Below, in pieces: positions 1 through 10,548 of a DNA stretch of 10,548 bases. The notes beneath the pieces were generated by a model. The model saw only the letters and a list, made by a program, of their open reading frames with translations, made no database searches and had not been told where the DNA came from. The position numbers and the translations under genes were made by a program. Location of the stretch: assembly GCA_000004985.1 (NCBI GenBank), contig GG739021.1; one strand, given 5' to 3'. The first letter of the stretch is position 1, and every line of letters starts with the position of its first letter. This stretch comes from Naegleria gruberi. Lineage: Eukaryota.

Positions 1-71
1 GTGGCTCGACGATGCTTAACTTCTCAATCGGACGGGATGAGGTGCATTCATCGTGATATGGCCGTAGCCAT
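1..71. repeat. Copy 1 of a 71/72-nt direct repeat (GTGGCTCGACGATGCTTAAC...GGCCGTAGCCAT). The window starts exactly at its first base. Weaker homology continues to about position 100 (ATTGAATATAAG vs CAATGAATATAAG at the same offset).
   Basis: Identical to 1866-1937 except for one extra A in copy 2 (CTCAATCGG vs CTCAAATCGG). Internal complementarity: TGGCT (2-6) pairs with AGCCA (66-70), and ACGATG (9-14) pairs with CATCGT (49-54), so a hairpin is possible. Confidence 0.9.
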
Positions 72-901: not shown

Positions 902-1121
902 ATGACTCAACAAACTCACGAAGAATTATTCAATGAAAACATGTGTGGAAGTGGTTTGGCATTCAAGAAGGTAGTTCGTGAATTATTCAACAATCGTATT
1001 GTTCCTGCAACCAAGAATCTTCAACAAGTCAATTCAAAGATGATCATCTTGTTGGATTGGGCTTCTCTTGCTGCATTGCCAACTGAAACCAAATACAAGT
1101 ATGGTGATAGATTGCTGAAGA
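902..1121 (+). CDS. Hypothetical protein, 5' part only (73 codons before assembly gap): MTQQTHEELFNENMCGSGLAFKKVVRELFNNRIVPATKNLQQVNSKMIILLDWASLAALPTETKYKYGDRLLK
   Basis: Open frame from a well-contexted ATG (aaaATGa) that runs into the N gap. No family recognised. Codon usage (TTG, CTG, AAG, ATC, AAC, TTC) and about 38% GC are unlike the neighbouring, extremely AT-rich genes. Confidence 0.45.
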
Positions 1122-1632: not shown

Positions 1633-1865
1633 TGATTAATGCTTTCAATTGTTTAAAATGGCAGTACTCAATCAATATTGTAATGAATCAATAAAAACAA
1701 GCTTCCAATATTGTTAATATCAAACAAAATTTCTTCCTTTCAGAAACCTCTTTCAAAGACAGATTAATCATCGTTAAACTTACTTGTAAATGAACAAACT
1801 CTCCATAAAGATAAAAAGACTACAGCACTACAGGTTCCCAAGTTGTCTCCAACCTCAGTACTGAT

Positions 1866-1937
1866 GTGGCTCGACGATGCTTAACTTCTCAAATCGGACG
1901 GGATGAGGTGCATTCATCGTGATATGGCCGTAGCCAT
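1866..1937. repeat. Copy 2 of the 71/72-nt direct repeat
   Basis: 70/71 identity with 1-71 plus a 1-nt insertion. Preceded by ...cctcagtactgat. Same downstream partially conserved ATGAATATAAG block 16-27 nt after the repeat end. Confidence 0.9.
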
Positions 1938-2611
1938 TCATTTCCCAAACACAATGAATATAAGATTGGATATCTTCGTTTACTGGCAGTGGAAATTTCC
2001 TTATCTTTCAACAATCTATCAGAAACTAGATTAGATGATCTAGATCCAAAACAAGTTGTTTCTTCCATTTTACACAAAAGCTTTAACTGCCAACAATCAA
2101 ACTGATCAATGGTCTAGCTCCATTACTCGACAAATGTTAACCCAAAAATTTTCAATCCATCAATGCAGAAGAAACCAAAAACAAGGTAATCATGATTGCA
2201 AGTATTCAATAGTTTTGGAAATTAATTCCTAATCTCAAATGGGAAGGTGTGTTTTTTACAATTTTGTCAATCAATATTTTACAAAATATTAAAGTTAGAG
2301 AAATGCTATATATTCCAATTTTGGATTTGAATTTTCTCCCAAATAGATATCTTCTTCTTGCTCTTCGTGTTGAAATTAAGACATTTGATAAGAAGGCAAT
2401 TCCATCATATCAGGAAAACAATGAGAGGAAAGAACAAATGGAACTAAAAAGGGCATCTTGGAATATTTTTAAGGAATATGACACTTTGAAATCTTTGATT
2501 ATTTTCTCGGTGGTTTTAAGAGATATAACTTTGAAAATTGATAATTGGCTAGATTACATATCATTCCTCTTATGATGAAAAAATTAAAACTCAAATTTTG
2601 GAGATAATGTC

Positions 2612-2616
2612 AAAAA
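2612..2616 (-). terminator. RNA polymerase III terminator (T5 on the tRNA strand) 5 nt downstream of the tRNA-Asp 3' end
   Basis: Plus-strand AAAAA at 2612-2616 is TTTTT on the minus strand, immediately 3' of the tRNA discriminator base. Confidence 0.6.
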
Positions 2617-2621
2617 TTAAT

Positions 2622-2692
2622 CTCGAGTGCCGGGAATTGAACCCGGGTCGCCAGAGTGACAGTCTGGAATGCTACCACTATACCACACCCGA
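2622..2692 (-). tRNA. tRNA-Asp (anticodon GUC), 71 nt, no intron, CCA not encoded
   Basis: Reverse complement reads TCGGGTG-TG-GTAT-AGTGGTA-GCAT-T-CCAGA-CTGTCAC-TCTGG-CGAC-CCGGG-TTCAATT-CCCGG-CACTCGA-G. The acceptor stem is 7 bp (one G-T wobble). The anticodon stem CCAGA/TCTGG is perfect. The anticodon loop CTGTCAC carries GTC at positions 34-36. The T-arm CCGGG-TTCAATT-CCCGG is a canonical B box. The D-arm (GTATAGTGGT) resembles eukaryotic tRNA-Asp. Confidence 0.9.
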
Positions 2693-3044
2693 TTTCACAT
2701 TAATTCTCATTCAACATAATATTTCTAGCTATTCTAAAAAGGAACCTTAATTGTAGCTTTAAGTGTAATATTGCTTTCAATAAAAATTTTTTGATATTAA
2801 GGCTGAAGAGTTTGGTAAACTTAAACAATTTAAACTTGTTCAATGGAAACAAGTTCAAGTTTAATTTAAAGAATCAGACAGAGAAATTGTTTTACAAGCT
2901 ATTTCAATGGGAAAAGTTTACAATTATTCAAATGAAGTTGTTGGTTTTCCATTGGTAATTTTTAAAATAATTATGAGTGTCACTTCAAGTTCATCCTATT
3001 GAATCAATGTTTTGATCAATTTGAACAATGAACATTAAAAAAAA

Positions 3045-4198
3045 ATGTCATCATCATCGGATCCACTTGCTGATTATCGTCGTTTAGCAGCAGAGAGAAG
3101 AAATCGTTTATTAGGTAACAACAATACTTCTACTCCACCTCCATCACCATCAAATTTAAATAATAATAATAATAGTATATCATCATCATCACCTTCATCA
3201 TCAAATAACACGACAACTATTAATAATAATATATCATCAAATACTCCTAATACTCCTAATACTCCTAATACTCCTAATAATAATATAAAAACTAAAAAAT
3301 TAAAATTAATTGAAAAATCCAATGAAGAAATATTAAAAGAAAGAGAATCATTAATTCCAACAAATTTAATTTCAATTTTAAATCCAAATACAGAAAAAAA
3401 GAAATATTTAGAAAAATTAAATTCTGAAAATGAAATGATATTAAAAAGAGAAAGAGAAGAAAAAGAAAATTTATTAAAACAATTAAGAAATGATCCACAT
3501 ATAGGTAAAAAATCCAAATCTATTGATTATCCAAATATAGATAATAGTTTAAAATTAAATTCACCAACAAAACCAAATGAAATAACTGAAACTATATTTG
3601 AAAGTCAATTAGAAGAAAATGAACCATGTATTTTACAAATTAGATTTATAGATGGTTCAATTAGTAAAGTTAAATTTGAATCAAATGATAAATTAACACA
3701 AATATGTCAATATATATTTAATTCTGAAAAAGGAAAAGATTATAATGGTATTAAAATTAAAATACCATTATTTAAAATTAAATATTTTAATAATACAAAT
3801 ATGAATTTATATAATTTAAAAGAATTAGAATTAACTCCAAATGGTAATTTAATTATTGAAAATGATGAAAGTGAATTTGCATTTACAATTAATAATTTAA
3901 TTCAAGATTTAAATATTAATCATGAATTAAATTATTTACCTGTTGAATATATTTTACAAAATTTTGGTTCATCCTACAGATTAAAAGGTGATACAATTGA
4001 AGAGAAGGAAAAATTTAGAAATCGTCAACGTGAAAAGGAAATTGAACATGCAAAATTAGAAAAATTAAAAAAAAAGAAGGAAATGGAACAAGTTAGAAGA
4101 AATTTAGAATTAGATAAAAAAGAAAGATTAGAAAAATTAGAAAAATTAAATAATTTATCATCCAATTCACATTCATCATCAGCTATATTTGATTCAAG
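3045..4198 (+). CDS. Low-complexity protein with a UBX-like ubiquitin-fold domain (about aa 190-275: EPCILQIRFIDGSISKVKFESNDKLTQICQYIF...LELTPNGNLIIE) followed by a K/E-rich coiled coil. 5' end complete, 3' end lost in the assembly gap.
   Basis: Uninterrupted 384-codon frame from ATG in an A-rich context (aaaaaaaaATGtca). The N-terminus is rich in Asn/Ser/Thr/Pro, including a (PNT)4 repeat. The IRFxDGS...KF..NDKL.QI..YI pattern matches the beta-grasp core of UBX domains (p47/FAF1-like), although the FPR loop motif is absent. The ORF-track extension to 6371 is an artifact of translating N. Confidence 0.8.
3240..3275 (+). repeat. Perfect tandem 9-bp repeat (AATACTCCT)x4 encoding (NTP)x4 inside the UBX-like gene
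   Basis: aatactcct appears four times consecutively at 3240-3275. It is in frame and translates to NTPNTPNTPNTP. Confidence 0.95.
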
Positions 4199-6359
4199 NN
4201 NNNNNNNNNNNNNNNNNNNNNNNNNNNNNNNNNNNNNNNNNNNNNNNNNNNNNNNNNNNNNNNNNNNNNNNNNNNNNNNNNNNNNNNNNNNNNNNNNNNN
4301 NNNNNNNNNNNNNNNNNNNNNNNNNNNNNNNNNNNNNNNNNNNNNNNNNNNNNNNNNNNNNNNNNNNNNNNNNNNNNNNNNNNNNNNNNNNNNNNNNNNN
4401 NNNNNNNNNNNNNNNNNNNNNNNNNNNNNNNNNNNNNNNNNNNNNNNNNNNNNNNNNNNNNNNNNNNNNNNNNNNNNNNNNNNNNNNNNNNNNNNNNNNN
4501 NNNNNNNNNNNNNNNNNNNNNNNNNNNNNNNNNNNNNNNNNNNNNNNNNNNNNNNNNNNNNNNNNNNNNNNNNNNNNNNNNNNNNNNNNNNNNNNNNNNN
4601 NNNNNNNNNNNNNNNNNNNNNNNNNNNNNNNNNNNNNNNNNNNNNNNNNNNNNNNNNNNNNNNNNNNNNNNNNNNNNNNNNNNNNNNNNNNNNNNNNNNN
4701 NNNNNNNNNNNNNNNNNNNNNNNNNNNNNNNNNNNNNNNNNNNNNNNNNNNNNNNNNNNNNNNNNNNNNNNNNNNNNNNNNNNNNNNNNNNNNNNNNNNN
4801 NNNNNNNNNNNNNNNNNNNNNNNNNNNNNNNNNNNNNNNNNNNNNNNNNNNNNNNNNNNNNNNNNNNNNNNNNNNNNNNNNNNNNNNNNNNNNNNNNNNN
4901 NNNNNNNNNNNNNNNNNNNNNNNNNNNNNNNNNNNNNNNNNNNNNNNNNNNNNNNNNNNNNNNNNNNNNNNNNNNNNNNNNNNNNNNNNNNNNNNNNNNN
5001 NNNNNNNNNNNNNNNNNNNNNNNNNNNNNNNNNNNNNNNNNNNNNNNNNNNNNNNNNNNNNNNNNNNNNNNNNNNNNNNNNNNNNNNNNNNNNNNNNNNN
5101 NNNNNNNNNNNNNNNNNNNNNNNNNNNNNNNNNNNNNNNNNNNNNNNNNNNNNNNNNNNNNNNNNNNNNNNNNNNNNNNNNNNNNNNNNNNNNNNNNNNN
5201 NNNNNNNNNNNNNNNNNNNNNNNNNNNNNNNNNNNNNNNNNNNNNNNNNNNNNNNNNNNNNNNNNNNNNNNNNNNNNNNNNNNNNNNNNNNNNNNNNNNN
5301 NNNNNNNNNNNNNNNNNNNNNNNNNNNNNNNNNNNNNNNNNNNNNNNNNNNNNNNNNNNNNNNNNNNNNNNNNNNNNNNNNNNNNNNNNNNNNNNNNNNN
5401 NNNNNNNNNNNNNNNNNNNNNNNNNNNNNNNNNNNNNNNNNNNNNNNNNNNNNNNNNNNNNNNNNNNNNNNNNNNNNNNNNNNNNNNNNNNNNNNNNNNN
5501 NNNNNNNNNNNNNNNNNNNNNNNNNNNNNNNNNNNNNNNNNNNNNNNNNNNNNNNNNNNNNNNNNNNNNNNNNNNNNNNNNNNNNNNNNNNNNNNNNNNN
5601 NNNNNNNNNNNNNNNNNNNNNNNNNNNNNNNNNNNNNNNNNNNNNNNNNNNNNNNNNNNNNNNNNNNNNNNNNNNNNNNNNNNNNNNNNNNNNNNNNNNN
5701 NNNNNNNNNNNNNNNNNNNNNNNNNNNNNNNNNNNNNNNNNNNNNNNNNNNNNNNNNNNNNNNNNNNNNNNNNNNNNNNNNNNNNNNNNNNNNNNNNNNN
5801 NNNNNNNNNNNNNNNNNNNNNNNNNNNNNNNNNNNNNNNNNNNNNNNNNNNNNNNNNNNNNNNNNNNNNNNNNNNNNNNNNNNNNNNNNNNNNNNNNNNN
5901 NNNNNNNNNNNNNNNNNNNNNNNNNNNNNNNNNNNNNNNNNNNNNNNNNNNNNNNNNNNNNNNNNNNNNNNNNNNNNNNNNNNNNNNNNNNNNNNNNNNN
6001 NNNNNNNNNNNNNNNNNNNNNNNNNNNNNNNNNNNNNNNNNNNNNNNNNNNNNNNNNNNNNNNNNNNNNNNNNNNNNNNNNNNNNNNNNNNNNNNNNNNN
6101 NNNNNNNNNNNNNNNNNNNNNNNNNNNNNNNNNNNNNNNNNNNNNNNNNNNNNNNNNNNNNNNNNNNNNNNNNNNNNNNNNNNNNNNNNNNNNNNNNNNN
6201 NNNNNNNNNNNNNNNNNNNNNNNNNNNNNNNNNNNNNNNNNNNNNNNNNNNNNNNNNNNNNNNNNNNNNNNNNNNNNNNNNNNNNNNNNNNNNNNNNNNN
6301 NNNNNNNNNNNNNNNNNNNNNNNNNNNNNNNNNNNNNNNNNNNNNNNNNNNNNNNNNNN
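4199..6359. other. Assembly gap (2161 N). It hides the 3' end of the UBX-like gene and the downstream approximately two thirds of pckA (converging genes).
   Basis: Continuous run of N. Coding frames enter it from both sides on opposite strands. Confidence 1.
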
Positions 6360-6887
6360 TGGTCTAATTAACATATTTCTCATGAATAGAGCATGATAAG
6401 CACGTGTAGAGACAACTCTAATCTTAATTCTATATTTTGGATCCCAACCAGCATAACCATCAAAAACGTATAATTGTTCACGTGTATTTAAATAATCAAC
6501 AGCACGTTCTCTATTAACCATAAATGAATCTTCACTTAATGGAATATTAACAGGACCAAACCAAATATCATCTTTTGATGTTTCTTCTGAAACAATACGT
6601 TTATCTTTAGGTGAACGACCTGTCTTTTGTCCACTAAAAGCAACAAGTGCACCTGTACAAGTTAATGCTGTACCTCTTTCATGTTTTAATGCTTGTTCAT
6701 ATAATACTGGTACTGAAGCATTATGATAAACTCTACGTGCTGTAATACCATAACTTTCTAATTCTTGATGAACTGAATCTTCATCTGATGAATAATATTC
6801 TGGATCCATACGATGAAATTGATGATCTGATGCATGTTGATTATCTTGATGAACAGTTGGTGCTAAATGTTTGGCTAAATTTGACAT
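6360..6887 (-). CDS. pckA: Phosphoenolpyruvate carboxykinase (ATP), N-terminal 176 codons (MSNLAKHL...RAYHALFMRNMLIRP). The rest lies in the gap.
   Basis: The translation aligns closely with yeast Pck1 and E. coli PckA N-terminal regions: ELESYGI, VLYEQAL, SGALVAFSGQKTGRSPKDKRIV (nucleotide-binding kinase-1a region), WFGPVN, VNRERAVDYL, DGYAGWDPKYRIKIRVV, RAYHALFMRNMLIRP. ATG at 6887-6885. The frame is exactly in phase at the gap edge. Confidence 0.93.
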
Positions 6888-7000: not shown

Positions 7001-8063
7001 TGATCATAATGTTTTGATCAATTGTAAATGGATCAATCATTAATAAACATTGAATATTAATATAAAATTATTAATACAATAATAATACGCTACCTCTATT
7101 ATTTTAATATTAGGGAGGTGATGAAATAATTGAGACTTTTTTTTTTGAAATTAAATGGACCCAAGATAGATACAAAGCGACTTTAAATCCATTTTTGATT
7201 GGAGTCTAGTTTGGGTTCTGGTTTAAAATCTCGCGAATTAGCCCAGGTGGTAACCTATGGTGAAAAATGTGTTCGTTGATTTTGTAATATCGCTCTCACA
7301 TTAGCGAATTTATTGACTATTAGATATTTGTTGAGGTGAACTGGTGAATGATCAGGGTGCGCTATTTCAACCATTTTCTTTGTAGGGACTAAATTTGTTT
7401 CCGCCCCAAGTTTGAACATATTAAGGTTTATCAATTATACCAGTTATAGGTCCAAAGTATTAAGAGACATTATCTGAGATCTATCTAAACTCTTCATTTA
7501 TTTATGTGAGGTCTTTATTCAGTCAGAACCTTTTTAGTAAACGGAGAATGTACAACATTAATTTGATACAAAATGCATTTTTTGTCAATTAAATTTGGAA
7601 AACAAATCTATTCCAAATTTTTTAAACAGCAATTACATCAAAACCTCCTGATAAATTATTAAAGGCTACATTATCATTTGAAAAGCACATCAAACAGTGT
7701 AGTAAGGCAACTTTGAATGTCAATTCACAAATTTCATTTATTGATAGTGAGAACCATTTTCAATTGTGACTCACAACGATTGTTTATTCTGAATTCCACT
7801 CTCTGATTGTAAAATAATTCTCACTATGACCCCTCATTCCTAGACAAATCCAAGAAGTGTAATTCCCTGCAATGGAGGAAATTGTATTGAAAATCATACC
7901 ACTGGTGACTGACAATGAATTGTATGAAATTGGCTCACTTGTGGCCAAAGACCAAGAATATGTGAACGCATGTCCATTTAATCTACCTTTTTTTGCAAAC
8001 AGTTTAGTGAAATTGGCTTATCTCAACAATTATTTTTATTCTTGAGAAGGATTTACATGCCAT

Positions 8064-8396
8064 ATGGCTGTTTTAAACAAAAGAGGTGATCTATGTTTCA
8101 TGGATAGATCTCAACAAGACATGATATACTCTCCAGAAGAATTTAATGTTCTACTAATCTTTAAGAACAGTTTGCCAAATATACATTCAATGAACTGTGA
8201 CATCCCTCCTATTTTTACTAGCTCAATGGAGCTGATATGTCATTATCGATTACTCCAAGACTTCAACCAGAGCAGGTTCCAGTACAACTCACTCTACTGG
8301 TGGACTTTCCAAATGAGAAAAGTATTTGTCAAATCATTAAGGAGAATCACCAAGAGTTTCTACTGTTTTGCGAATTGGATATTGTCTCATTTCTAA
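8064..8396 (+). CDS. Orphan 110-aa ORF inside the 2.5-kb moderate-GC non-coding region. Probably not a real gene.
   Basis: It is the only ORF of at least 60 aa in 7000-9470. It is rich in C/W/F with no recognisable motifs, and its composition matches the surrounding non-coding DNA. Confidence 0.15.
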   Translation: MAVLNKRGDLCFMDRSQQDMIYSPEEFNVLLIFKNSLPNIHSMNCDIPPIFTSSMELICHYRLLQDFNQSRFQYNSLYWWTFQMRKVFVKSLRRITKSFYCFANWILSHF

Positions 8397-9473
8397 TAAG
8401 GTAAAAAGTTTAATTTCATGTGGATGGATATCATTTTACATGTCATGATGGTAATGAAAGAGATATTGTTGTAGCTTACATTCGTTTTATTTGAAAAAAG
8501 TTGGCTATTTTTATTTAAAAGACAAATATACCAATATAAACTTGTTTTTGTTAAACTGCAAAATATTTATGTAAATGTTAAAATTTGATGGGTTTTATCT
8601 TCTGTTGGTTTAACTTTAAACACTTGGAAGTGGAAAACCTTGAAACTATTCATTGAGAGTATTGATAATTAGAGTACTTAATTTACCAACGTTTGGATGA
8701 CCATTAACTCCTGTTATTTACCATACTGGTAATGATATACAGTGATAACTTTGGAATTGTACAGACAATAGGTTAGTCATTTAAAACTGCACCATTTGCT
8801 TGTATCTGATGTGGTTTAATACAACATTTAAAATCAATTTACGCTAAGTACTGTGGATATGTTTCCGTTTTGTTCTTGAGAAAACTTAAAGTGTTGGTAC
8901 TTGGCTAAGTTGTACCGATATCAGCACCTACTTACAGTATTGTTGTGCACTATAGAGACTCGTTAACATATATGCAAAGTCAGAGTAGTTTGAAAACTAC
9001 TAATACAATATAAAGTGCTCATCAATATGTATGGTATATTATCGTTACCGTATGTGTAAATACACAGCAGTACAACCCAGTTTGAGGTATGTTGGGTTTG
9101 CTACGATATCAAATGTGAGCAACATAACTCATCAAAAACACCAAAGTCAGAACAGCGAACCATGCTAAACCACCCAATACATAATGTAATATTTAGTGGT
9201 ATTTTCTTTTTAGGATCTTATCCACAGTGATAAAATATGATAACACCAATAATCGAAAATTCTAACAAATTGAAACTTTACAAAGTCTGCTATTTGTTGT
9301 GATAGACATGTTAATTACCCAAATCAGCTCATCAATCACGTAACCATTTTACGAGTCAACTGTCGTTAACAACATCAAATAAAAATGCTCACACAAACAC
9401 AGGCAGCAAATACAACCAGTTTTTCCAAAGCTTCTACATTTTGATTCAAGCATCATAATGTACCAACCCAATA

Positions 9474-9941
9474 TTACAAAATAATACATTTTTCCTTTTC
9501 ATCTCTATAATATTCACTTGCAGTTTGTGAAGGCATTTCTTGTTTAATTTGATTTCTTCCCTTAGTATTATTATATTCTCTATATTGAGAATCATCATTA
9601 TATTGTTGTTGATTTGATCTTTTATCAGCAATTATATTTCTTCTTGAATGATGTTGTTGATTATTATAATAAGGTTCATCTAATTCATGTTGTTGATATT
9701 GATCATATTGATCATGATGAGGATGTGAATGTTGTTGTTGTTGATAATATTGTTGTTGATCATCATCTAATTCATATTGTTGATGTTGAATAAAAGGTCC
9801 AACATTTGATTCATATTGATGATTAATACTACCAGGTTGATCATCAATCATATCTAATTGATCTATAATTTCTTGTTCTAATCTTTGTTGATCTAATAAT
9901 TCTTGTTCTCTTCTTTCTTGTTCAATCATTTCTTCTTTCAT
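9474..9941 (-). CDS. Q/H/Y/D-rich low-complexity C-terminal segment ending in CaaX box CIIL. It is probably the tail of the same kinesin-like gene, joined through a +1 frameshift at about 9979-9984.
   Basis: 155-codon ORF (MKEEMIEQERREQELLDQQRLEQ...RDEKEKCIIL*). Its frame stays open upstream of the Met (RRKNLNNQQQELIFDE-MKEE...) back to a TGA that overlaps the previous frame. One extra A in the A6 run would fuse the two frames. The terminal Cys-Ile-Ile-Leu fits the prenylation CaaX consensus with X=Leu. Confidence 0.5.
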   Translation of the reverse strand: MKEEMIEQERREQELLDQQRLEQEIIDQLDMIDDQPGSINHQYESNVGPFIQHQQYELDDDQQQYYQQQQHSHPHHDQYDQYQQHELDEPYYNNQQHHSRRNIIADKRSNQQQYNDDSQYREYNNTKGRNQIKQEMPSQTASEYYRDEKEKCIIL

Positions 9942-9973
9942 TTCATCAAATATTAATTCTTGTTGTTGATTAT

Positions 9974-10173
9974 TTAAATTTTTTCTTCTTCATTTTTAAT
10001 ATGATTACCATGATTACTAATATTTAAAGTACTAGTATTTAAATTATTTTGATTATTAGTATTTAAATTATAATCAGTTTGTATTTCTTTTGATTGTGAT
10101 TGTGGTGGTAATTCAATAGCATTAATAGTTCTATAATAATCTAATGCTTCATCTACTTCATATCCATATAAAT
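9974..10173 (-). CDS. Kinesin-like gene, putative exon 2 (DLYGYEVDEALDYYRTINAIELPPQSQSKEIQTDYNLNTNNQNNLNTSTLNISNHGNHIKNEEEKI*). It ends at TAA inside an A6 homopolymer region.
   Basis: Same strand and orientation as the upstream exon, and in phase if the predicted intron is removed. The frame is listed in the ORF track as 9974..10180. Confidence 0.45.
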
Positions 10174-10307
10174 CTGTCATTATTGATATTTCATTTTTAT
10201 TTATATTATTATTAAATTATTTAAATTATTATTTATATTATTATTTAAATTATTTAAATTATTTAAATTATTATTATTATTAGGTATTAAAGATGATATA
10301 ATCATAC
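10174..10307 (-). other. Putative 134-nt spliceosomal intron (GTATGA...ACAG) in the kinesin-like gene
   Basis: Donor GTATGA with G at +5 and acceptor CAG. The interval is about 10% GC, noticeably lower than the flanking exons. It contains AATTATTTAAATT-type microsatellite repeats. Splicing joins ...NSTLHN to DLYGYEVDEALDYY... in frame. Without splicing the frame stops at 10201-10203 (…NNLIII*), only 20 nt before the next ATG, which is implausibly close for a separate gene. Confidence 0.45.
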
Positions 10308-10548
10308 CATTATGTAAAGTACTATTTAAAATGTTAGAATTTAAAGTATTACTATTTAATAAAATATTATTATTTAAATAATAAAATAATTGATTTTCTA
10401 ATTCTAAAATTCTATTTTTTAATATTTTTTCATTTTGTAATAATAAATTAATTTTATCTAAATTAGGATCACCTCTAATAATTTTTAACTTATTTTTAAT
10501 ATGTTTAGCTCTATCAGCAAAATATAAAGATGATAAAATTCTTCCATA
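10308..10548 (-). CDS. Kinesin-like protein, end of the motor domain (YGRILSSLYFADRAKHIKNK), neck linker and coiled coil (RGDPNLDKINLLLQNEKILKNRILELENQL). The 5' part of the gene is outside the window.
   Basis: Open frame entering from the window edge. LSSLYFADRAKHIKNK matches the conserved kinesin motor C-terminal motif (ETLSTLRFAxRAKxIKNK). It is followed by a neck-linker-like xxDPxxxxLLxxxQxEIxxL pattern and heptad-repeat residues. Confidence 0.65.

Follow-up and report, generated by a model that had tools for sequence, protein, structure and literature searches.

A probable kinesin gene fragment with two frame breaks and a CaaX ending at the edge of a Naegleria gruberi scaffold

Prenylated kinesins and the Naegleria locus

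Prenylated kinesins are already known, namely CENP-E and the Trypanosoma brucei protein KinesinCaaX (PMC3206815). The latter (Tb10.389.1270) is a protein of 832 aa comprising an N-terminal motor, a coil and the terminal sequence CVIM; it has been shown experimentally to be farnesylated, is essential, and was reported by its authors to be restricted to kinetoplastids (PMC3206815). CaaX boxes in which X is Leu belong to the GGTase-I class (PMC3206815). The CaaL substrates of this enzyme, such as the Rho/Rac/Rap GTPases and the G-gamma subunits, end in Cys-aliphatic-aliphatic-Leu, as does the locus described here, which ends in CIIL. The G-gamma-12 subunit ends in the identical four residues. The carrier of CIIL in the present case would be a motor protein, whereas these GGTase-I substrates are small signalling proteins.

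The window analysed, meaning the whole stretch of DNA, is a complete Naegleria gruberi scaffold of 10,548 bp, and the kinesin-like gene occupies its last 1,075 nt and runs past the scaffold end. Judged from its sequence, the locus is most likely an ordinary single-exon gene with two single-base errors. Its CIIL ending is real, and a kinesin with a CaaX ending is plausible and has clear precedents. The element of interest would plausibly be a kinesin ending in a GGTase-I-type CaaX box, which represents no new kind of system.

Like T. brucei KinesinCaaX, the locus appears to encode an N-terminal motor, here deduced from its end and neck, followed by a coiled or helical stalk and a terminal CaaX box, and its tail likewise fits no standard kinesin family. 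The two proteins differ in that KinesinCaaX ends in CVIM and is farnesylated, whereas the Leu at position X of the Naegleria fragment predicts geranylgeranylation. In KinesinCaaX, moreover, a palmitoylatable Cys is conserved three residues before the CaaX box; this Cys is absent in Naegleria (…RDEKEK). The Naegleria tail is of low complexity and unrelated to that of KinesinCaaX.

CENP-E (kinesin-7) resembles the putative Naegleria protein in having an N-terminal plus-end motor and a C-terminal CaaX box, which in CENP-E is prenylated. CENP-E is, however, farnesylated and contains a coiled coil of ~2000 residues, whereas the Naegleria tail has ~340 residues and is mostly disordered, with a single helix of 48 residues. 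The neck, ...DPN..., has the form found in kinesin-3 and kinesin-2, unlike that of CENP-E. The likeness to kinesin-3 and kinesin-2 (KIF13B, KIF1A, KIF3C, OSM-3) extends over alpha-6 and the neck linker, ...L(S/R)(Y/F)ADRAKHI.N....(N/R)(E/G)DPN.... In contrast to these families, the Naegleria fragment has no FHA, PH or PX module and no kinesin-2 tail, and its attachment to a membrane would be by a lipid anchor and not by a lipid-binding domain.

It is tentatively possible, although doubtful, that a kinesin of Naegleria is geranylgeranylated and that a C20 lipid anchors this plus-end motor directly in the membrane, without adaptors or lipid-binding domains. If true, this would be the first CaaL-type kinesin and the first predicted to carry geranylgeranyl. 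If the protein is both made and prenylated, lipid-anchored kinesins would be known from a third lineage in addition to those of CENP-E and trypanosome KinesinCaaX, and the tail of the protein would represent a simple form of motor-membrane coupling. Naegleria builds a microtubule cytoskeleton only when it undergoes mitosis or differentiates into a flagellate. Naegleria and the trypanosomes both belong to the supergroup Discoba; the protein, if real, may be a distant relative of the kinetoplastid KinesinCaaX, in which case lipid-anchored kinesins would be ancestral in Discoba.

Coding signal across the three frames

A preliminary description of this DNA had placed three consecutive frames, referred to here as i, ii and iii, on one strand, which is the minus strand, and all of its coordinates proved correct. 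Frame i (YGRILSSLYFADRAKHIKNK...) is closed by a TAA stop at 10203-10201. Frame ii has an ATG at 10180 and a TAA at 9976-9974, and its open stretch actually reaches back to 10216. The open stretch of frame iii extends from 9989 to the TAA at 9476-9474, with ...RDEKEKCIIL as its C-terminus. The open frames comprise 115, 80 and 171 codons, respectively. Their lengths are beyond chance, since the longest open run in 2000 shuffles had a mean of 46 codons, was at least 80 codons in 1% of them and never reached 115.

The three frames showed extreme codon periodicity, with GC3 values of 0.025, 0.00 and 0.041 for i, ii and iii. Codon usage was scored with a log-odds model trained only on the two other genes of the scaffold (UBX and PEPCK). 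Scores of+0.95 to+1.37 bit/codon were obtained for the three frames and for the proposed intron read in frame i, with frame ii giving the strongest score of the locus, while the spacer and 3' flank scored about -0.8 bit/codon in every frame. In a sliding window of 12 codons, the best-scoring frame was i to ~10207, then ii, and then iii from ~9990 to ~9487, and no non-coding interval was seen between them in this window. The codon periodicity and the uninterrupted coding signal across frames i to iii support the earlier proposal of a single same-strand gene in place of three. Frame iii is unlikely to be a separate CaaX protein, the other option raised in that description, because its coding signal abuts the end of frame ii with no gap. 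When one A was restored at each of the two breaks, a single ORF of 358 codons was obtained. The features of the locus and of the remainder of the scaffold are collected in Table 1.

Table 1. Features of the kinesin-like locus and other mapped features of the 10,548 bp scaffold.
Feature	Position	Strand	Basis or remark
Kinesin motor C-terminal end, alpha-6-like helix, YGRILSSLYFADRAKHIKNK	10489..10548	-	PDB phmmer and AlphaFold; cut by scaffold end
Neck linker (LKIIRGDPN) and neck helix (LDKINLLLQNEKILKNRILELENQLFYYL)	10375..10488	-	KIF13B alignment, AlphaFold
Proposed GTATGA...ACAG intron	10307-10174	-	134 nt, 8.2% GC; excision joins frames i and ii in frame
A2 run, A3 in upstream duplicate	10212..10213	-	Probable one-base deficit at the i/ii break
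Frame ii coding segment (DLYGYEVDEALDYYRTINAIELPPQSQSKEIQTDY..., then Asn-rich)	9977..10173	-	80 codons open, GC3 0.00,+1.37 bit/codon
A6 run	9979..9984	-	One added A joins frame ii to iii; best-scoring frame switches here
50-nt intron candidate, G|GTAATC...CAACAAG|	10008-9959	-	
349-nt intron candidate	10307-9959	-	Skips frame ii
Charged stalk helix, 48 residues (RKNLNNQQQELIFDEMKEEMIEQERREQELLDQQRLEQEIIDQLDMID)	9843..9986	-	AlphaFold single-sequence model
Gln/Tyr/His/Asp-rich tail, predicted disordered	9489..9842	-	AlphaFold and codon score
CaaX box CIIL (TGT ATT ATT TTG) and TAA stop	9474..9488	-	
PEPCK fragment	6360-6887	-	99% identical to 'predicted protein [Naegleria gruberi]' XP_002668544.1, EFC35800.1, NAEGRDRAFT_76540
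UBX-domain gene	3045-4198	+	
Last exon of annotated model XP_002668544.1 (…FTYMWIIS)	3509-3486	-	Maps onto scaffold

Motor end, neck and CaaX tail

To characterize the 5' part of the gene, the first 54 residues of frame i were searched against the PDB with phmmer. Kinesins accounted for 12 of the 14 matches, with KIF13B as the best (E = 0.034); the individual E-values were weak, ranging from 0.03 to 1.5. The kinesins matched were KIF13B, KIF1A, KIF3C, OSM-3, Giardia kinesin-2 and one labelled only 'kinesin-like protein'. For each of them, query residue 1 was aligned to the last motor helix (chain residues ~312-414) and the alignment extended through the neck linker (…ADRAKHI.N…DPN…), reaching through ...VVNEDPNARIIRDL... 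in the case of KIF13B. The alpha-6 helix (…L.FA.RAK.I.N) and the neck linker of the kinesin superfamily are present as a weak match at the correct position.

In a single-sequence AlphaFold model, two helices were predicted, at residues 2-25 and 28-77, separated by a break at the RGDP neck-linker position; in the second, the neck helix, pLDDT was >90 for residues 31-55. The predicted layout is that expected for alpha-6, neck linker and neck coil. About 20 motor-domain residues are present on the scaffold and the kinesin call rests on ~50 residues; no frame gave a significant match to Pfam, with PF00225 below threshold on so short a piece. By phmmer against the PDB and by AlphaFold, the 5' part resembles a kinesin motor at its C-terminal end, followed by the neck, in agreement with the kinesin-like character first ascribed to it, and the gene fragment very probably derives from a kinesin with an N-terminal motor. 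Among the PDB structures, the neck was closest to kinesin-3 and kinesin-2, and E-values of 0.03-1.5 are too weak for assignment to a kinesin family. An affinity to CENP-E (kinesin-7) was not indicated, with no CENP-E chain among the 14 PDB matches.

For frame iii, the AlphaFold model (single sequence) showed one helix at residues 2-49 with pLDDT of ~86-96, and most of residues 63-162 had pLDDT <50. The restored product has the C-terminus …YYRDEKEKCIIL. As the preliminary description stated, a canonical CaaX box with X = Leu is located directly before the stop codon. The 358 restored residues contain no Cys other than that of this box, at position -4. From the composition, the chance of a C-aliphatic-aliphatic-X ending was about 1.6e-4 to 8.5e-4, and ~10x lower for X = Leu/Phe. 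The C-terminus is probably correct, because the coding score of frame iii remained positive to within ~10 nt of the stop and the 3' flank scored as non-coding. Upstream of CIIL, a second lipidation site or a polybasic stretch is absent.

Relatives of the tail were sought in several ways. An exhaustive phmmer search of frame iii against 1.84 billion representative proteins gave no matches, and an exact look-up of the frame iii product returned no record. No matches were returned by a word-indexed protein search with either the fused 313-aa tail or its informative part of 93 aa. These two negatives are weak, because the PEPCK control returned only proteins of up to ~1.75x the query length, and the search was probably unable to return full-length kinesins. 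In scans of contig collections, frame iii had no relatives in genome contigs or viral contigs, and a 93-aa query made up of the motor end and frame ii found none in metagenome contigs.

Origin of the two frame breaks

The two breaks are alike in that each is one A short in a run of A; they are separated by 230 nt, and both fall in the final 600 nt of the scaffold, in sequence of 8-25% GC. At the second break, a 13-nt zone at 9989-9977 (AGAAGAAAAAATT), which contains the A6 run, is open in frame ii as well as in frame iii. The earlier claim that one extra A in this run (9984-9979) restores frame ii to iii was confirmed on the sequence, and with A7 in place of A6 the predicted stalk helix runs on through the junction (…IKNEEEKNLNNQQQELIFDEMKEEM…). 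Programmed -1 frameshifting at this site was rejected on inspection and is unlikely because GAA AAA ATT TAA is not a slippery heptamer of the type X XXY YYZ. Transcriptional slippage at A6 was also rejected on inspection, the run being too short.

For the first break, a 30-nt unit (TTTAAATAATTTAAATAATAATATAAATAA) at 10258-10229 was found to be repeated 33 nt downstream with 29/30 identities. As 33 nt equals 11 codons, the repeat is in phase. The sole difference between the duplicates is one A, absent at 10213-10212, and this site falls within a 13-nt zone (10216-10204) that is open in frame i as well as in frame ii. Addition of an A at 10213-10212 gives ...NNLNNNINKNEISIMTDLYGYEV... and fuses frames i and ii without splicing (…NNLNNLNNNINKNEISIMTDLYGYEV…).

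The locus was interpreted, with a probability of roughly 0.55, as the 3' end of one unannotated single-exon gene for an N-terminal-motor kinesin, interrupted by two one-base deficits of A, namely A2 for A3 at 10213-10212 and A6 for A7 at 9984-9979. The exon would encode, in order, the end of alpha-6, the neck linker, the neck helix, Asn-rich low complexity, a short acidic segment, the charged helix of 48 residues, the disordered Gln/Tyr-rich tail and CIIL, and the remaining motor domain would lie beyond the scaffold end, together with the catalytic motifs of the kinesin superfamily, namely the P-loop (GxxxxGKT/S), switch I (SSRSH) and switch II (DLAGSE). Errors of base calling or assembly in AT-rich low complexity are the most probable cause of both breaks, which are single-A deficits near the scaffold end; the alternative is very recent replication slippage. 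GGTase-I would geranylgeranylate the restored protein on Cys-355, as the CaaX box with X = Leu suggests, and through the lipid at this position a plus-end-directed motor would be attached to the membrane by its cargo end. The locus illustrates how single-base homopolymer errors in AT-rich scaffold ends can mimic gene structures with introns and frameshifts, and how genes of the 2010 N. gruberi assembly can go unannotated because of such errors.

A different explanation of the first break is that a spliceosomal intron of 134 nt (10307-10174) joins frames i and ii, so that only the A6 run is wrong or shifted. The boundaries GTATGA...ACAG, of which GTATGA is an acceptable donor, the length of 2 mod 3 and the in-frame join are consistent with such an intron. 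Its size of 134 nt also fits the range of Naegleria introns (mean of 203 bp in N. gruberi, median of 80 bp in N. lovaniensis). However, introns are few in N. gruberi, at 0.7 per gene (PMC8296547). Five GT and 11 AG dinucleotides are present between frame i and the open frame ii; of the 55 possible GT x AG pairings, 35 keep the frame and are stop-free. An in-frame GT…AG pair is uninformative because these 35 pairings equally qualify. Neither the coding score nor the amino-acid style changes at the donor, the disputed segment (10204-10308) scoring+0.95 bit/codon in frame i against 1.0 in the adjoining exon. Under the intron model, however, this codon score would be no more than a coincidence of about 1 in 3, because (AAT)n holds a 3-nt phase even inside introns. 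The GC content is 8% compared with ~13% in the adjoining accepted exon, and on direct reading neither a pyrimidine tract nor an evident branch site was seen before ACAG. The 29/30 duplicate lacking one A also accounts for the break without splicing. With the intron as the null, a 1-nt indel was able to fuse the flanks in only 2.7% of mononucleotide shuffles; the corresponding figures were 1-23% for triplet-block shuffles and 38% for cyclic rotations.

The evidence reads better with 10174-10307 as coding sequence for Asn/Leu/Ile-rich low complexity, in frame i to ~10213 and then in frame ii. A genuine 134-nt intron is improbable, and the combination of this intron with an error or shift confined to the A6 run is likewise unlikely. 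The requirement for an intron in the preliminary description was unsupported, given that the coding score is undiminished in the segment and that one missing A suffices. Reassignment of TAA as in ciliates was excluded by inspection, as frame i would still stop at the TGA at 10179-10177.

It is also unlikely, to a slightly greater degree, that the locus is a recent pseudogene in which both deficits are genuine slippage mutations and the full-length protein is not made. Two frame breaks within 230 nt would fit this explanation, as would a tail without a known homologue among the 1.84 billion proteins and the position of an unannotated gene on a small unplaced scaffold. Against it, all three frames have stayed free of in-frame stops and the codon bias is retained in full (~+1 bit/codon), so that inactivation would have to be very recent. 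Moreover, both breaks have the form that read or assembly errors most typically take where A/T runs lie close to the end of a contig.

An origin of the locus as a contaminant or foreign insert (dictyostelid-like or viral), and not as Naegleria nuclear DNA, has a low probability. It was considered on account of the GC3 of 0.00-0.07, the usage of TTA/AAT/CAA/AGA and the N/Q-rich proteins, all atypical beside spacers of 27-40% GC. A 94%-identical PEPCK on a metagenome contig has ordinary codons (GC3 0.375), and ContScout marks some proteins of GCA_000004985.1 as contaminant. However, both compositions occur inside single gap-free contigs, and do so twice (the N gaps of the scaffold are at 1122-1632 and 4199-6359). 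No dictyostelid or viral relatives of the tail were found in the searches of 1.84 billion proteins and of viral contigs, and the viral PEPCK match is only 61% identical, which argues against a giant-virus origin. Low GC3 has also been reported for Naegleria species (PMC11702301).

The last explanation, that splicing alone joins the frames without any sequence error, through either the 134-nt and 50-nt introns or the single 349-nt intron, is very improbable: both versions give an uninterrupted ORF ending in CIIL and introns down to 30 nt are assumed for N. fowleri, but GTAATC lacks a G at+5, the acceptor is an A-rich AAG, the 349-nt version drops the 80 codons of frame ii with their+1.37 bit/codon and GC3 of 0.00, and hundreds of such models arise by chance.

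With regard to the remainder of the scaffold, no transposon or repeat structure was found in the block of 33% GC on the 3' side of the kinesin-like stop codon, and ORFs in the spacers gave no significant match to Pfam. The contrast between the GC3 of 0.00-0.07 in the coding sequence of the scaffold and the 27-40% GC of its spacers counts against the single-exon interpretation. A recoded or synthetic scaffold was ruled out, since the last exon of the annotated model XP_002668544.1 threads onto it. The scaffold also carries two 5S rRNA genes and one tRNA-Asp gene.

Base composition of coding pieces and spacers

The three recognisable coding pieces, the UBX-domain gene at 3045-4198(+), the phosphoenolpyruvate carboxykinase (PEPCK) piece at 6360-6887(-) and the kinesin-like gene at 9474-10548(-), all had GC3 values of 0.00-0.07. 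The codons TTA, AAT, CAA, GAA and AGA (with CGT) were used almost exclusively in each, and the products were N/Q-rich. In low GC3, codon choice and N/Q-rich products, these pieces resemble dictyostelid genes. The UBX-domain gene, which extends into an assembly gap, contains long runs of Asn, Ser and Pro-Asn-Thr. The non-coding spacers (142-900, 1936-3044 and 7150-9473) had a GC content of 27-40%, and the shift in composition was abrupt immediately past the CIIL stop codon of the kinesin-like gene. A spacer GC far in excess of GC3 is, in general, unusual.

The ORF at the first gap differed in codon usage from the other genes of the window (GC3 of 0.38, with TTG, AAG and TTC), and a search for a Pfam match to it returned none. 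It could belong to a gene in another expression class, or the ORF could be spurious.

Features located in the window
Feature	Position	Strand	Remark
5S rRNA gene	1-69	-	Truncated by scaffold start
ORF	902-1120	+	Runs into first gap
5S rRNA gene	1817-1935	-	
tRNA-Asp(GTC)	2622-2692	-	Near the 5S rRNA genes
UBX-domain gene	3045-4198	+	Pfam PF00789, E = 1.7e-6
PEPCK model join	6360-6887 to 3509-3486	-	Annotated model NAEGRDRAFT_76540

The annotated PEPCK model and a metagenome relative

NAEGRDRAFT_76540 (XP_002668544.1, 183 aa) consists of the first 171 PEPCK residues followed by 12 residues (…IFGFFTYMWIIS) from beyond the 2161-N gap. The final eight of those 12 residues (FTYMWIIS, 3509-3486), if not more, are read antisense to the UBX gene. 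The join across the gap is an artefact of gene modelling, and the true PEPCK extends into the gap (…FMRNMLIRP).

The PEPCK encoded by L001, a 624-nt metagenome contig (ENA ERZ27237200 k141_224364), was identical to the window piece at 83 of 88 residues and also matched its idiosyncratic N-terminal extension (…DPEYYSSDEDSVHQELESYGIT…). The contig's version had ordinary codon usage, with a GC3 of 0.375 compared to 0.10 in the window PEPCK, and 45 of the 83 same-residue codons were identical. The N-terminal piece on this contig was in inverted orientation, probably through an assembly artefact.

A repeat at the proposed intron donor

A 23-nt in-phase repeat (83% identity) was found in the kinesin-like gene at 10547-10525(-), within the motor helix, where the encoded residues are (Y)GRILSSL, and at 10310-10288(-), where they are (N)GMIISSL. 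Since the second copy spans the GTATGA donor of the intron proposed in the preliminary description, it gives a small further hint that this donor lies within coding sequence. The repeat itself may be due to chance.

5S rRNA and tRNA genes

The two 5S rRNA genes were spaced 1865 nt apart, with flanks 88-100% identical across ~100 nt. They are of the dispersed or short-array type, adjoining protein-coding genes.
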